IMG/VR virus record: IMGVR_UViG_2854395284_000002
Coordinates: 1-27,637 of that record
Length of the DNA stretch: 27,637 nt
Reading direction: 5' to 3' (one strand)
From: a virus
Lineage: Duplodnaviria; Heunggongvirae; Uroviricota; Caudoviricetes
Shown: positions 11,650 to 16,680 of the stretch, piece by piece
Layout: each line of letters starts with the position of its first letter
Numbering within the stretch: the stretch's first letter is position 1
Made by a program: the position numbers and the translations under genes
Notes under the pieces: model-generated
Database searches by the model: none
Seen by the model: the letters and a program-made list of their open reading frames with translations, nothing else
What the model was told of the DNA's origin: nothing

Positions 11650-11919
11650 TTATTTATCATCTGCATAGAAATCGCAAAAATCATTCTCATCTGTAAGAGT
11701 TTTTAATTCCTTACACAAATCAAATGTCATAACGTTCTGACAACTAGAATTTGGACATCTAACTGTGCATTGACTAGGTTTTGGGTTAATACATCTTGGA
11801 ATACAAGCTTCAGACCTTGCAAAAATAAATACTGTACCACATTTGTTACAAACACAACCATACTTTCTTTCTGGATCTGGTTTCTTTATATGGTCATTAT
11901 GTACTGCTAATATTCTCAT
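11650..11919 (-). CDS. Zn-finger hypothetical protein
   Basis: CNKC...CPNSSC. Start overlaps the stop of the PAPS-reductase-like gene. Confidence 0.65.
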   Translation of the reverse strand: MRILAVHNDHIKKPDPERKYGCVCNKCGTVFIFARSEACIPRCINPKPSQCTVRCPNSSCQNVMTFDLCKELKTLTDENDFCDFYADDK

Positions 11920-12911
11920 TGTTTGATTCTCTCCTTCTCATCCATCATTTTTCTAAACTCCATGTACTTTCTTGTATATTCATAAGAATCTTTGAAAATA
12001 TTCGTTACTGCTTTATATAGTTTAGGTTCATACTTCTCAATTACATCTAATTCATTCTCAAAATCTCTTCCATAAGGACAACCACAACATCCTGTACGTT
12101 TTAATCCATATTCCGTATAACATTTGCTATGTATAATCCCATACGCTTTCTCATAATCTTCTTTATCTGAATTTTTATACCAAAACAACGGTCTGTAATT
12201 GTCATACTTATCACTCTCATCGAAGCAGTTACCATATCTAACTCTTGCACCACCCTCAGTTTTTCGTACACCAAATATATTCAGATCATAATCTTCCTCT
12301 TTTAGCAGGTTATGAATTAAATCTTTTTTCGCATATTTGCAGCATCTATTTGAAATTTTAAATGTTGGATTGTTTTGAATCATAAATTCTTTTAGATATT
12401 TATTTCTACGAATATTGAAGTTATCTGTTAGATTTGTATTGCACCACCATTGTAATGCAGATTGACATTTCGGATACTTCTTATATAATGTATCAAAGTC
12501 TTCATCTTCCCACTGAAAGTTATGTCTTTGTAACCGTTGTAAAAATTCACTTGTAATCTTAGACATAAACGGTTCTCCATAATTCTTGCAACTTGCAGGA
12601 ATTGGAATTTTAGGACGTTTCTTTACAAACGTAATATCATATCTTTCTTCAAGATATTTTAAATGATTTTTCGTGGCTTGATATTCAAGACCTGTATCAA
12701 ACCATACATAATCTACCTTGTTATCTTTATCACATCTCCAAACAATATCTAACATTACATCACTGTCTGAACCGCCAGAGATTGCACAAACAATTTTCTT
12801 ATACTTTGTATTGTTAATAATTGCCCATGCACGAATCAAGTTGTCACAAATCATTTGATTTACAGGACAACCATTTAATAATTCCTCAATTGTATTAGCT
12901 TTCTGTACCAA
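11916..12911 (-). CDS. PAPS-reductase/DndC-family PP-loop Fe-S protein (copy 2)
   Basis: SGGSDS PP-loop, RCCKYAKK, GVRKTE..R, RPLFWY and RTGCCGCPY. TTG start. Confidence 0.85.
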   Translation of the reverse strand: MVQKANTIEELLNGCPVNQMICDNLIRAWAIINNTKYKKIVCAISGGSDSDVMLDIVWRCDKDNKVDYVWFDTGLEYQATKNHLKYLEERYDITFVKKRPKIPIPASCKNYGEPFMSKITSEFLQRLQRHNFQWEDEDFDTLYKKYPKCQSALQWWCNTNLTDNFNIRRNKYLKEFMIQNNPTFKISNRCCKYAKKDLIHNLLKEEDYDLNIFGVRKTEGGARVRYGNCFDESDKYDNYRPLFWYKNSDKEDYEKAYGIIHSKCYTEYGLKRTGCCGCPYGRDFENELDVIEKYEPKLYKAVTNIFKDSYEYTRKYMEFRKMMDEKERIKQ

Positions 12912-13085
12912 TATGTACTTTCCTCACTGAAAATTATTTCATTTCAATGAGGCAAAGCCATACTTCGTGAGTGTCTTTTTACGTCACTATCACATTGCTT
13001 TTTCGATTTATATTAACCAATGATCCGTCTTCTATAAATCATCGTGACAACCTTTGCTGCACAAAGGTATTAAATACATATGGTA
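12906..13085 (-). ncRNA. Structured intergenic RNA, module copy 2
   Basis: Terminal 13-bp long-range stem (13085-13073 with 12919-12906, one bulge, one GU); 7-bp hairpin 13050-13068; 8-bp stem 13005-13040; 11-bp RBS hairpin 12922-12952. Confidence 0.65.
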
Positions 13086-13090
13086 AAAAG

Positions 13091-13447
13091 CTAACCAATC
13101 GGTAGTACAGCTTCGCAAAGTCTTTCTATGTTGTTTATTTCACAATTTACCATCTTGTGATTTGGATTATCATTATTATAATCTCTCATAAACATATCTA
13201 GCCAGAAATCAAAATACTCATCATCTGCACTTGAATCCATTACTGCATATCTATCAACTGTTTTATAATTACCTTTTTCTGTAAGATAAGATAAATTGAC
13301 TTTATATACCGGCAATGTAATTTTTGTTTTCAAGAAATTCTTTGGATGTATATTTCTTAGTTTTTCTTTTAAATCTGAATCATAAATTTCAAATACGTCA
13401 ATTCCTGTCCTTAGAGAACAGTTTTTAAAAAACTCACTCGGATGCAC
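13091..13447 (-). CDS. Small unknown protein, module copy 2 (paralog of 14954-15277)
   Basis: GTG start after GGTGG; HPK...YLTEKGNYK motif. Confidence 0.75.
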   Translation of the reverse strand: MHPSEFFKNCSLRTGIDVFEIYDSDLKEKLRNIHPKNFLKTKITLPVYKVNLSYLTEKGNYKTVDRYAVMDSSADDEYFDFWLDMFMRDYNNDNPNHKMVNCEINNIERLCEAVLPIG

Positions 13448-13477
13448 TACTTTTCACCACCTTTCTACCAATAAAAC

Positions 13478-14758
13478 CTAGAACAACGCACAACCTTGAG
13501 CCTTAAACGACTCCACCTGCTTGTCCCACTCTTCTTTTGTCCAATCAAATTCTTTCATCAAACATTTCTTACAATAGAATTTATTAACTTGTCTTCCATG
13601 TATTTTTAAGTTCATTGAAAGAACTTCCTTATGTTTTATTCTCTTATTGCACTCACAACATTTCTTATTAAAATATTGCAGCGCAATCTGTTTATCAATT
13701 CCTGTATACTTTACAAATTCATCAATAACTTCTTGTGTTGGCTCACTTCTAAACACACCACCATTCCATGCTTGAGTAAGATATTCTTCAATTGTGCAGT
13801 TCATAATCAGCCATTTCTGATTACTTATAAAATCTTCTCTTAGAATATCTCTCCATCTTTTATATGCTTTTGAATACCAATATTTATCAAGAATCCATGT
13901 TGACTTCGCATAATATGGACAAGCACAATGGCATCCAACTCTTGAATATCCTTTTTTATATTTTGGATTAACTTCAATATTTTTCCAAAATGTATAAAGC
14001 CAAACATCTAATTCCGTCCACTTTCTAATAGGAAGTATTCCTTGCCAGCATGTGTCTCCCCATTCGGAAGTATTAACCCATTCGTCTTGATAATTGCTTC
14101 TTGTATTGGATTCTTCATTTCTCATTCCCATAAAAATTAAATACGGATGCTTATTATCAAGCTGAGAGACCATAACTCCAACTTTAAAAATCCTACAACA
14201 GAATCTTGAAAATCTTGATGGAATCATAGAATCAGATTTCACATATTGATAAAACCCTTTGTCTGGATTCATGATTTTACAGTTCGGAAACCGTTTAACC
14301 ATCTTATATGTGTCAGCACAATCAAGTGATGTGTTGTTGAATATTGCTTTTGTGTTTGGATATAGTTGTCGAACTAAATGACATGTAACCATAGAATCTT
14401 TACCCATAGAAACAGGTATTATTGGAGTATATACATCATAATCTTTGATCTTTTCACGTATTAGGCATAAAGCTTCATGTTCAATTTCTCTCAAATGATT
14501 TTCTTTGAGATTGACCATTGTTCTCCAATCTATTAGGTCTACTTCAGATGAATCTTCATAAGATTTTAATTTTAGAATTTCTACTTTTTCTAGGTTATCT
14601 GATACTTTAACTCTGCAAAATTTATGTTCTACAAGTTGACTATCAAAGCCTTTTATAATCTGTTTATCAAGCCAAAAGAATCCTTCTTTTAAATAAGGTA
14701 ATTCTTCGCCAGAAGTGTCTCTTAAAAATTTGATATATTCATTGTATATCGGATTCAA
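13478..14758 (-). CDS. PAPS-reductase/DndC-family PP-loop Fe-S protein with C-terminal Zn finger (copy 1)
   Basis: SMGKDS, RFCCRIFK, GMRNEESNTR, PIRKWTELDVW, GYSRVGCHCACPY and C-terminal CCEC...YCKKC. TTG start. Confidence 0.85.
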   Translation of the reverse strand: MNPIYNEYIKFLRDTSGEELPYLKEGFFWLDKQIIKGFDSQLVEHKFCRVKVSDNLEKVEILKLKSYEDSSEVDLIDWRTMVNLKENHLREIEHEALCLIREKIKDYDVYTPIIPVSMGKDSMVTCHLVRQLYPNTKAIFNNTSLDCADTYKMVKRFPNCKIMNPDKGFYQYVKSDSMIPSRFSRFCCRIFKVGVMVSQLDNKHPYLIFMGMRNEESNTRSNYQDEWVNTSEWGDTCWQGILPIRKWTELDVWLYTFWKNIEVNPKYKKGYSRVGCHCACPYYAKSTWILDKYWYSKAYKRWRDILREDFISNQKWLIMNCTIEEYLTQAWNGGVFRSEPTQEVIDEFVKYTGIDKQIALQYFNKKCCECNKRIKHKEVLSMNLKIHGRQVNKFYCKKCLMKEFDWTKEEWDKQVESFKAQGCALF

Positions 14759-14944
14759 TTGTAATCTTCCTTTAACTTTTGGATTTTACCAATTAGTTAA
14801 AGGAGTCTATCTTATGCTTAGAAACCAATTATTTTAGGTCATAGTGTAAGATTTTACGTTTTAACCTTATGTCGCTATGTTGCTTTGGTAATACAAGCCA
14901 TCTCGCTATACAACCCTGATTACAGGGATTTGATTACAATTGAA
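14754..14944 (-). ncRNA. Structured intergenic RNA, module copy 1
   Basis: Perfect 13-bp terminal inverted repeat (14754-14766 / 14932-14944); hairpin CCCTG-TAAT-CAGGG 14914-14927; 10-bp RBS hairpin 14768-14804. Confidence 0.65.
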
Positions 14945-14953
14945 AAATATTTA

Positions 14954-15277
14954 TTATTCAAGTTCTAAATAAAGTTTTCCGAAATAAACCGCATCAAGAA
15001 TTTCTACGTTTGATATCGTTCTTTCCGGATGTTTTTCATTAAGTTCTTTAATATGATTCATGAATTCCTGATCGACAGAATCCCATGCATTCTTATCTAA
15101 GAACATATACTTTACTGCTTCTTTTGGATTTCCACGAGCAGTTGTATACTTATATTTAATCTTCCAAGTTGGAATAGGAATTACTTCACTTGCAATCTGT
15201 TTTGGATGGCAGTTTTTAACTTCTTCCATTTCACTGTCATCGTACTTACAAACTGCTTGTAATTCAGATATTTTCAT
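14954..15277 (-). CDS. Small unknown protein, module copy 1 (paralog of 13091-13447)
   Basis: AGGAGG precedes ATG 15277; HPK...YTTARGNPK motif. Confidence 0.75.
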   Translation of the reverse strand: MKISELQAVCKYDDSEMEEVKNCHPKQIASEVIPIPTWKIKYKYTTARGNPKEAVKYMFLDKNAWDSVDQEFMNHIKELNEKHPERTISNVEILDAVYFGKLYLELE

Positions 15278-15350
15278 TTTGACTCTCACCTCCTGATTAT
15301 TTATTCTCTACTTCGACAAAAATCAAATGAAAAATTAATTTCATAATTAG

Positions 15351-15540
15351 AAGCACGTTCATTTCCGTACTTCATGAGAGCATCCTTGTCCCTGACTACG
15401 TGAGGGTTGCGGTTTGTTCCAGAGTATTATATTCTGAATTCACAGGTTCAACTCATACACCCATCGGTTGACTGAAATATTGCTAACAGTCTTCACCTTT
15501 ACCTTTTCACCATCTCAGACTTTCAGTTCCTTTCACCGCA
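15351..15540 (-). ncRNA. Candidate multi-stem ncRNA
   Basis: ORF-free and relatively GC-rich. TGCGGT/ACCGCA encloses ACTGAAA/TTTCAGT, GTCT/AGAC, CAAC/GTTG and TTCAGA/TCTGGA, followed by CCCT/AGGG and GAAGTACG/CGTGCTTC hairpins. Confidence 0.45.
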
Positions 15541-15557
15541 TTTATCTTTTTATTATT

Positions 15558-15743
15558 TTATTTCCAATTAAAATACGGAGTATATCTTCCACAGAAAAGA
15601 TTGCAGCATCTTTCCTTATATACAAACTTATTATTCTCTAACACACATTCTCTAACCATAGATTTTCCGCACATCGGACATTTCTTTGTGATTTTACTAT
15701 TTTTATTGCCAATCTTTACTTCATATCCAAGTAATTCATGCAT
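15558..15743 (-). CDS. Small Zn-ribbon protein
   Basis: CPMC...CCNLFC; GGGGG RBS-like tract upstream. Confidence 0.55.
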   Translation of the reverse strand: MHELLGYEVKIGNKNSKITKKCPMCGKSMVRECVLENNKFVYKERCCNLFCGRYTPYFNWK

Positions 15744-15765: not shown

Positions 15766-16500
15766 TTATTCTCTTATCTCAAATAATTTTTCCACTGCTT
15801 TTACACGCTTGTTATTATCAATTGTTCTTTTTACTTCTTGTTCCCAAATACAATCCCATCCTGAAGGTGCTTTATGTTCACTAACCAGAACAATATTCTT
15901 TTCGCTCATTTTTTCCGCCCAATTCCAAAATCTATCATAATCAAAGTTTTTGCTTGTACCATATTGTTTTACTCCGCAATATGGAATATCACAGTAGAAT
16001 AAACAGTCAATTCTATCAGAATATAACTCTTCATAATCTCCGCATTGGAACAGAATATCTTTTAATCGTGGAATCTGTTCTAATAGGTTTCTTCTTGCTT
16101 CATCATAATAATTTCTTTCAGTTCCAGCTTTTGTACATACAACGCCTGAATATCCACCATCAAAGAATCGTCCGTTATAGCTCGCAAGAAATCCAACTGC
16201 TCCAATATACCAGCCAGGATATGTATTTAAGTCTTTGTTGAAGCATTCTCTTACTTTTGAGTAATGTTCTTTTGTAATAAAATCTGGAAGACTTTGAATC
16301 CGATTTAGATTCTTGAATATTTCTATAAGATATTTATGATTATCGGATGCAATTTTTGTATCACATTGAATCTTGTCAATGATATTGCATCCACCACAGA
16401 ACGGCTCTATATATGTTTTTATATCATAATCTTTTATTCTCTGCTGAATAATCGGAATTATATATTTCGATATTCGAGACTTTGATCCCATGTATTTCAT
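15766..16500 (-). CDS. D12-class (Dam-like) N6-adenine DNA methyltransferase
   Basis: KYMGSK, YIEPFCGG (SAM-binding motif I) and FYCDIPY (DPPY variant). Confidence 0.9.
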   Translation of the reverse strand: MKYMGSKSRISKYIIPIIQQRIKDYDIKTYIEPFCGGCNIIDKIQCDTKIASDNHKYLIEIFKNLNRIQSLPDFITKEHYSKVRECFNKDLNTYPGWYIGAVGFLASYNGRFFDGGYSGVVCTKAGTERNYYDEARRNLLEQIPRLKDILFQCGDYEELYSDRIDCLFYCDIPYCGVKQYGTSKNFDYDRFWNWAEKMSEKNIVLVSEHKAPSGWDCIWEQEVKRTIDNNKRVKAVEKLFEIRE

Positions 16501-16680
16501 TAACAACTATTAAGAGCAAAGAATTCTTTAATGTACGTACAAATCTCATACTCCTTTCGTTAAGTTTTCTTAATAAAAATTCAATTTCATAACTAGATGT
16601 TTGCAACCATCTAATATATTATTCTCTTGTCCAATTGGAAATTTCGAGCAGAAACGCTCTAAGAAGTTATTTTAAAATTA

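Follow-up and report, generated by a model that had tools for sequence, protein, structure and literature searches.

Organization of the locus

The window analysed here, a stretch of 27,637 nucleotides (nt), is part of a 143-kb virus record (IMG/VR record IMGVR_UViG_2854395284_000002, Caudoviricetes). It has a low G+C content, and every gene in it lies on the minus strand. Within this window, a three-part module occurs twice in tandem: a gene for a small protein, a structured RNA, and a gene for an enzyme with the fold of 3′-phosphoadenosine-5′-phosphosulfate (PAPS) reductases. An original prediction, made from the letters of the sequence, had described two back-to-back copies of this layout, and all six parts are found on the minus strand at the positions that it gave. 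The parts are as follows, with protein lengths in amino acids (aa):

Small protein 1: 14954..15277, minus strand, 107 aa, ATG start at 15277, in agreement with 107-aa homologs
Class A RNA (module 1): 14754..14944, minus strand, defined by fold and covariation
Enzyme 1: 13478..14758, minus strand, 426 aa, TTG start, PAPS-reductase-fold PP-loop protein
Small protein 2: 13091..13447, minus strand, 118 aa, GTG start, paralog of small protein 1
Class C RNA (module 2): 12907..13084, minus strand, defined by fold, covariation and covariance model
Enzyme 2: 11916..12911, minus strand, 331 aa, TTG start, PAPS-reductase-fold PP-loop protein of a clade other than that of enzyme 1

The strict intergenic spacers span 14759-14953 (195 nt, module 1) and 12912-13090 (179 nt, module 2); the slightly wider spacers first proposed match the folded element together with the start codon that it contains. 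The stop of enzyme 1 and the GTG of small protein 2 are separated by just 30 nt (13448-13477) that carry a strong Shine-Dalgarno (SD) sequence (AAAGGTGGTGA), and both modules consequently look like one transcript.

Conservation of the three-part layout

The three-part layout is not a chance arrangement, as it recurs in every related locus whose contig is long enough, and many Bacillota phages have the small protein and RNA ahead of PAPS-reductase-like enzymes. The 27 close homologs of small protein 1, most of them 107 aa long, lead to 25 IMG/VR loci in phages of about 50-210 kb, and in each a gap of about 200 nt separates the gene from a PP-loop enzyme downstream. The identical gene order is kept in 16 more contexts obtained from distant family members. 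Across the family, a member with room on its contig is followed, after 164-257 nt, by an enzyme with an SxGxDS PP-loop; the exceptions are two solitary fringe members. Elsewhere, modules 1 and 2 are found singly or 1-2 kb apart, and each module is therefore a separate unit.

The same flanks are recovered from the RNA side. A search with a pattern of class C RNA words returned 100 stretches, with 80 loci among the matches listed; both flanking genes are present in 72 of these 80 listed loci, the other 8 lie at contig ends, and there are no exceptions. The gap in these loci is 164-180 nt, and the enzyme start is TTG in 71 of 72. TTG is also the enzyme start in each of the 18 complete class A modules that have an enzyme-1-type gene. 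The pattern of a third RNA class, class B, is flanked by small protein and enzyme in five of six cases. The suggestion that the parts form a linked functional unit agrees with this conservation: homologs of the small protein are usually followed by the spacer and the enzyme gene.

Several loci depart from the common picture or extend it. Two distant family members (L144:1562-1933 and L145:2501-2830, E about 1e-7) have neither the RNA nor an adjacent PAPS reductase, and a full divergent module is additionally present 1.7 kb downstream in L144. In L020:4001-5430 the module is decaying: small protein and class A RNA remain whole, a 79-aa remnant is left of the enzyme 1 gene, and unrelated genes and then a complete module 2 follow. 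In L023:3971-4512 the homolog of small protein 1 stops early (95 aa) and the gap grows to 253 nt, with RNA and enzyme intact. A phage-like 203-kb plasmid of Clostridium botulinum BKT015925, p1, carries a class B module (L160, NC_015417.1 40942-42915) with an NAD ligase and cytosine methyltransferases as neighbours; there the small gene is annotated as hypothetical, the enzyme as "PAPS reductase family protein", and the RNA is unannotated. A tblastn search of the INPHARED phage collection with three family members gave no match. In species-representative bacterial genomes, a scan for the small protein found nothing, and a scan for the RNA patterns gave 12 chance matches, which lack both the small protein and the P2 hairpin. 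In RNA-seq data, one metatranscriptome and one unlabelled run contain contigs of relatives only.

The structured RNA

Both spacers fold more stably than shuffled sequences (z -6.7 for module 1 and z -4.8 for module 2), and none of 200 shuffles was as good in either case. The class A RNA is composed of a closing helix P1, a hairpin P2 followed by GGUUGUAUAG, an extended P3, a hairpin P4, P6, and a hairpin P7. The P4 loop (UAAAACGUAAAAUCUUA) pairs with UAAGAU further downstream to form a pseudoknot. The elements of the two RNAs, all on the minus strand, are listed below.

Class A P1: 5′ arm 14932-14944; 3′ arm 14754-14766, with the TTG start at 14756-14758
Class A P2: 14914-14927
Class A core: 14804-14930
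Class A pseudoknot: 14847-14852 with 14809-14814
Class A P7 (SD hairpin): 14769-14803; SD at 14766-14773
Class C P1: 5′ arm 13075-13084; 3′ arm 12907-12917, with the TTG start at 12909-12911
Class C P2: 13051-13067
Class C pseudoknot: 13044-13048 with 12983-12987, GUCAC with GUGAC
Class C P3: 13004-13041
Class C P5: 12997-13001 with 12954-12958
Class C P4: 12990-12993 with 12967-12970
Class C P7: 12922-12952; SD at 12918-12925

Both structures are supported by covariation, in every helix and also in the pseudoknots. Among 18 distinct class A sequences, 95% of cells are paired and 11 pairs vary on both sides, a result matched by 0 of 500 shuffles; when the partners are slid against each other, pairing falls to 30-46%. 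P1 and P7 are among the covarying helices of this class. In class C (19 sequences), the share of paired cells is 90%, 18 pairs vary on both sides, and again 0 of 500 shuffles match. The class C covariance model R2 scores 129.8 bits at the module 2 spacer. Frequent G-U pairs on the sense strand indicate that the fold belongs to the mRNA.

The covariance models of classes A and C do not find each other's sequences. Class B spacers are found weakly by both, at full length and in the right place (E 0.07-0.4 with the class A model, E 0.02-1 with the class C model). Class B consequently bridges A and C, and the two spacers of the window are distant homologs. Common to all classes are P1, P2 and P7, a GUAAAA loop, and a pairing of a loop region with the segment just 5′ of P7; in all of them, a GGUUG linker pairs with the 5′ half of the P4 loop. 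The motifs GGUUG, AUAGYG and GUAAAA recur in all three classes. The fold and sequence words first noticed as common to the two spacers agree with these shared helices and motifs, and the link between the spacers runs through class B.

In Rfam 15, no family matches the window at its gathering threshold. With E relaxed to 5 across 11800-15400, the only match is a chance snoRNA match inside enzyme 2, and no known ribozyme family appears. This bears on the idea that the core is a self-cleaving ribozyme or RNase site, which would separate the messages of small gene and enzyme and set differing stabilities for them. A compact, pseudoknotted element with invariant loops between two phage cistrons is a common setting for small ribozymes; however, no ribozyme match appears even at this permissive value, and a P1 that joins both ends and carries the start codon fits translational control better. 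Cleavage is very improbable.

Occlusion of the enzyme start

The features that point to translational control lie at the 3′ end of the RNA. P7 contains the SD of the enzyme gene (AAAGGAAG in module 1 and GAGGAAAG in module 2), and the 3′ arm of P1 contains its start codon, which is usually non-AUG. In nearly all of 68 unique spacers, the small-gene stop is followed within 0-13 nt by the 5′ arm of P1. The duplex between stop-proximal and start-proximal segments has a median energy of -15 to -18 kcal/mol in these spacers, compared with -9.2 +/- 3.3 kcal/mol after shuffling, and at least two of the three start-codon bases are paired in 67 of the 68. With a covarying P1, these 67 spacers have the geometry expected of structure-mediated translational coupling. 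In partition-function folds of the free RNA, the ribosome-binding site (RBS) is about 0.1 unpaired. When 12-18 nt after the stop are held single-stranded to mimic a terminating ribosome, the start codon is freed (0.4-0.9). Neither spacer contains promoter-like or terminator-like sites on the coding strand.

A hidden single gene, arising by stop-codon recoding, an intron or a ribosomal hop, was considered and rejected. The 6-base repeat between small-gene end and enzyme start (TTGAAT, ATTGGT) would lead out of frame, and no such 6-base identity is present in the other RNA classes.

With the SD and the start codon both hidden in covarying helices, the anatomy agrees with the earlier idea that the RNA gates the enzyme. 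The module is read here, with a probability of about one half, as an operon-internal translational gate placed before a PAPS-reductase-like PP-loop and putative Fe-S (iron-sulfur) enzyme and perhaps set by the small protein.

The same anatomy is also typical of translational riboswitches. The core could sense a metabolite that stabilises or breaks P1 and P7, and the small protein would then do an unrelated job, such as that of an enzyme partner or an anti-defence protein. The pseudoknotted core, its strongly conserved unpaired bases, the three motifs common to all classes, the closing P1 and the sequestration of SD and start all speak for such a sensor. A conserved, covarying, aptamer-like structure in control of an expression platform is indeed present, and direct binding of a small-molecule ligand would complete a riboswitch. 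However, the RNA is never a free-standing 5′ leader and always follows an open reading frame (ORF) of the small-protein family, in nearly all cases within 0-13 nt. In addition, the cores of classes A and C are too diverged for mutual detection, yet they occur in the same genome and face the same metabolite pool, and no Rfam riboswitch or other family matches. A metabolite sensor is therefore considered improbable, and the gate is retained as the preferred reading.

The small-protein family

Small proteins 1 and 2 had been taken for paralogs, which BLASTP confirms with a significant alignment (29% identity, E 2e-12); small protein 2 also matches the family hidden Markov model at E 6e-41. Profile searches enlarge the family to 207 clusters at 50% identity, which are nameless in every library searched, and the small protein has no match in Pfam, PHROG or NCBIfam. 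The confident AlphaFold2 model of small protein 1 (mean predicted local distance difference test score, pLDDT, 91.7) is built of two short helices, a long beta-hairpin, one more helix and a long third strand. Conserved positions of the family (HP.Q, Y.Y.T.RGN.K...KY and N...P.R..SNV.IL) concentrate on the hairpin and the last strand, and the hairpin is the only basic and aromatic part of the protein. Foldseek searches of PDB, AFDB, BFVD and the ESM Atlas, as well as a language-model atlas, gave uncharacterised relatives only. In VIA-align comparisons, the sole recurring structural neighbour is ribosomal protein eL20/LX (Z 5.6-6.5).

In some loci, the domain is repeated. It forms two tandem genes in L143:363-1108, with one RNA and one enzyme downstream, and fused two- or three-domain proteins in L141:1870-2499 and L142:3001-3855, each followed by one RNA and one enzyme. 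These tandem and fused arrangements hint at a dimer or oligomer as the working form.

Two other identities were rejected. A domain split off from the enzyme is contradicted by an hhalign probability of 0.1%, and the protein is unrelated to the N-terminal domain of the enzyme. A ubiquitin-like sulfur carrier of the TtuB/ThiS/MoaD type would carry an invariant C-terminal Gly-Gly, whereas the C-termini vary (…LELE, …LPIG, …LSIE), and no beta-grasp protein occurs among the fold matches.

The PP-loop enzymes

Both enzymes match PF01507 (cut-off 22.5 bits), enzyme 1 at 9e-27 with 94.6 bits and enzyme 2 at 3.5e-12 with 47.1 bits, and both match phrog_424 at 1e-26. The PP-loop motifs of the two are SMGKDS and SGGSDS. 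The enzymes are only remotely alike (E 0.002), and the top Foldseek matches of the core fold are adenosine-5′-phosphosulfate (APS)/PAPS reductases. Enzyme 1 also has an N-terminal beta domain and a C-terminal four-cysteine ribbon; the invariant cysteines of its clade are C187, C188, C276 and C280 as well as C367, C370, C396 and C399. Enzyme 2 has RCC and GCCGC motifs. On motif evidence, C187, C188, C276 and C280 of enzyme 1 and the motifs of enzyme 2, with a pattern of the CC...CxxC type, would fit the Fe-S site of PAPS/APS-reductase relatives, where a Cys-Cys pair and a CxxC-type pair downstream of it serve a [4Fe-4S] cluster. The two had been described as PP-loop Fe-S proteins starting with TTG; the domain match and the starts bear this description out, and the cysteine pattern makes both of them putative Fe-S proteins.

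Assignment to a named family is not supported. The NCBIfam cut-offs for CysH/APS reductase are 165 bits for TIGR00434 and 235 bits for TIGR02055, compared with 52 and 47 bits for enzyme 1 and 28 and 28 bits for enzyme 2. DndC is defined by at least 290 bits with TIGR03183 plus dndB/D/E neighbours; this model matches neither enzyme of the window and reaches 30.9 bits with the L028 relative. The NCBIfam models that come closest describe uncharacterised PAPS-reductase-like families, and the scores stay far below cut-off in every case.

The neighbours of the modules in the window are small hypothetical proteins and a methyltransferase, as the tandem lies just downstream of a gene for a Dam-like enzyme:

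Dam-like DNA methyltransferase (context only): 15766..16506, minus strand, phrog_56 at 2e-32

Methyltransferases also adjoin the modules in L021, L024, L019 and L026. This neighbourhood suggests nucleic-acid modification, and the enzymes probably modify nucleic acid, an activity that is predicted. Phage PAPS reductases have been treated as likely anti-defence genes or cargo (PMC13551039). Further functions encoded in the window are those of replication, with a DNA polymerase, an NAD-dependent ligase, NrdD, a dUTPase and similar proteins. Between the methyltransferase gene and small protein 1 lie an ORF for a conserved, zinc-ribbon-like protein of 61 aa (15558-15743) and an ORF-free stretch of about 270 nt (15290-15557).

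Portability of the cassette

In the BLAST matrices, the clades of the small proteins and those of the enzymes are incongruent. In L038 and L039, for instance, the small proteins align at 141-159 bits and the enzymes at 25 bits. In L021 and L024, a relative of small protein 1 and a class A RNA are joined to two further unrelated enzyme clades, and in all, relatives of small protein 1 are found upstream of three enzyme clades. Conversely, relatives of enzyme 2 are found behind class C RNAs, a class B RNA (L027) and the L141 RNA. The RNA class, in turn, tracks the small-protein clade.

The cultured Clostridium phage CS266P3 (OP172777.1; L001:2055-3868) encodes an enzyme 52-57% identical to the enzyme 2 clade, with 52% identity to enzyme 2 itself. 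Its locus contains no small protein in any frame and no RNA-model match, and the enzyme ATG overlaps the stop (ATGA) of an upstream gene for a 270-aa Cys-rich protein. This relative indicates that the cassette is accessory, and CS266P3 offers a natural cassette-less comparison in a cultured phage. To judge from these sequence comparisons, the small protein and RNA are a portable accessory cassette shuffled among enzyme clades, not part of the catalytic machinery. The original prediction had assigned each protein/RNA pair a cognate enzyme. With the pair shuffled among unrelated clades, and a close relative of enzyme 2 lacking both parts, such cognate pairing is doubtful.

Portability also bears on two further explanations. 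According to the first, the RNA only forces translation from the small gene, and the small protein does not bind RNA but serves PAPS-reductase-type enzymes in general as a stoichiometric partner or regulator. The conserved stop-to-P1 geometry with the start codon within P1, the weak start codons, the overall acidity of the small proteins, and the classic ATGA overlap that stands in place of the cassette in CS266P3 are all compatible with this view. On the other hand, a protein in contact with the enzyme would be expected to diversify along with it, whereas the clades are incongruent, and a plain clamp would need neither conserved loop sequences nor two pseudoknots. Mere coupling of this kind is thus unlikely, with a likelihood close to that of the metabolite sensor.

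According to the second explanation, the enzyme works together with the RNA, alone or joined by the small protein; the RNA would be a substrate, scaffold or guide for nucleic-acid modification and would act in trans as a ribonucleoprotein after processing. The strict linkage of the three parts is in its favour, as are RNA conservation that equals or exceeds that of the flanking proteins, the uncharacterised state of the nearest NCBIfam models, and the action of the PP-loop enzymes TtuA and TilS on RNA. However, a close enzyme homolog has neither RNA nor small protein, the RNA includes the enzyme's own SD and start codon and is hence part of the mRNA, no promoter or terminator frames it, and the cassette is swapped among unrelated enzyme clades. 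Such a particle is quite improbable. The same low likelihood is given to a variant in which a small protein-RNA complex assists the enzyme and the start-codon lock only reflects cis assembly on its own message. If true, this variant would represent a new kind of RNA-assisted modification system in phages. In order of likelihood, the ribonucleoprotein and then the ribozyme stand below the metabolite sensor and mere coupling. The earlier proposal that the protein/RNA pair guides the enzyme found no supporting evidence.

Proposed mechanism of the gate

In the translational gate favoured here, the burial of both SD and start codon would bar free ribosomes from starting on the enzyme gene. A ribosome that ends the small gene would melt P1 at its base, precisely where the start codon is paired, and the compact core would keep stop and start near each other. 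Consequently, the enzyme would be made only through coupling or reinitiation across about 180 nt. This role of the upstream ribosome is proposed on the basis of the geometry and of what is established about structure-mediated coupling. The small protein, probably as a dimer, would be the most likely ligand of the core and would set the opening of the gate. It is the likeliest candidate because the core diversifies with it and because its domain occurs in tandem and fused repeats; the weak fold resemblance to eL20/LX is consistent with binding.

Several observations weigh against this interpretation. The eL20/LX match falls within the range of chance arrangements, and the small-protein family is slightly acidic (median isoelectric point 5.9), which is unusual for an RNA binder. 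The tracking of small-protein clade by RNA class could stem from co-inheritance of adjacent DNA. The P1 of the L024 module is weak (-4.3 kcal/mol), and in the constraint folds the SD remains buried even when P1 is opened. Finally, simple coupling does not need a conserved core of 130 nt, and the ligand of the core could be something other than the small protein.

If the gate is true, it would constitute a bacterial case of termination-dependent reinitiation across a folded element of about 180 nt with a dedicated protein ligand, and the two orthogonal copies in one genome would form a natural specificity experiment. The RNA and the protein can also serve well as markers by which such enzymes are found and classified in large gut phages and Clostridium phage-plasmids.

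Comparison with known systems

The original prediction held that no dedicated partner protein and RNA had been described for this enzyme family. This holds in the sources searched: no description of the protein, the RNA or the trio was found in Rfam, Pfam, PHROGs, NCBIfam, PADLOC-type literature and papers. New to the databases are a protein family of about 200 clusters and an RNA superfamily that is pseudoknotted, backed by covariation and divided into at least three classes. Equally new is the strict rule of gene order by which both are linked to phage PAPS-reductase-like enzymes, themselves suspected DNA-modification or anti-defence genes.

The enzymes share the PAPS_reduct fold, the PP-loop and CC...CxxC-type cysteines with the stand-alone phage family phrog_424 and its relatives DndC, SspD, BrxP and IbrA, for none of which an upstream small protein and RNA has been described. 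Both enzymes of the window lie among DNA methyltransferases, in a region typical of DNA-modification and anti-defence genes. They fall below the DndC and CysH cut-offs and have no DndB/D/E, SspB/C or IbrB partner. The resemblance to retrons that had been suggested is confined to gene order, as none of the four module proteins has a reverse transcriptase domain.

The element resembles translational riboswitches in its conserved, aptamer-like core with a pseudoknot, in its closing P1 and in the hiding of SD and start. In contrast to them, it lies inside an operon behind an obligatory ORF, its core diversifies with the product of that ORF, and Rfam contains no match to it.

Long-range translational coupling by mRNA structure is established for the MS2 coat/replicase operator and for E. 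coli rpmI-rplT, where L20 binds a long-range pseudoknot. As in these systems, an upstream cistron is combined with an RNA structure that hides a downstream RBS. There, the upstream ribosome opens the structure and an operon protein binds it; here, both steps are proposed. The present system differs in having a dedicated protein family of about 110 aa and a double-pseudoknot core of about 130 nt, which form a portable cassette confined to one enzyme superfamily. The distance bridged is 164-257 nt, and RNA and protein are unrelated to those of MS2 and rpmI-rplT.

Anti-defence regulators of the Aca type bind RNA motifs in the leaders of acr operons (PMC13551039). The likeness lies in a small phage protein encoded in an operon with a structured RNA that controls the translation of probable anti-defence genes (PMC13551039), such control being proposed in the present case. 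Aca proteins, however, have helix-turn-helix or ribbon-helix-helix folds and bind short hairpins at the 5′ end of the operon (PMC13551039), whereas the small protein described here has a different fold and its RNA is large, pseudoknotted and operon-internal.

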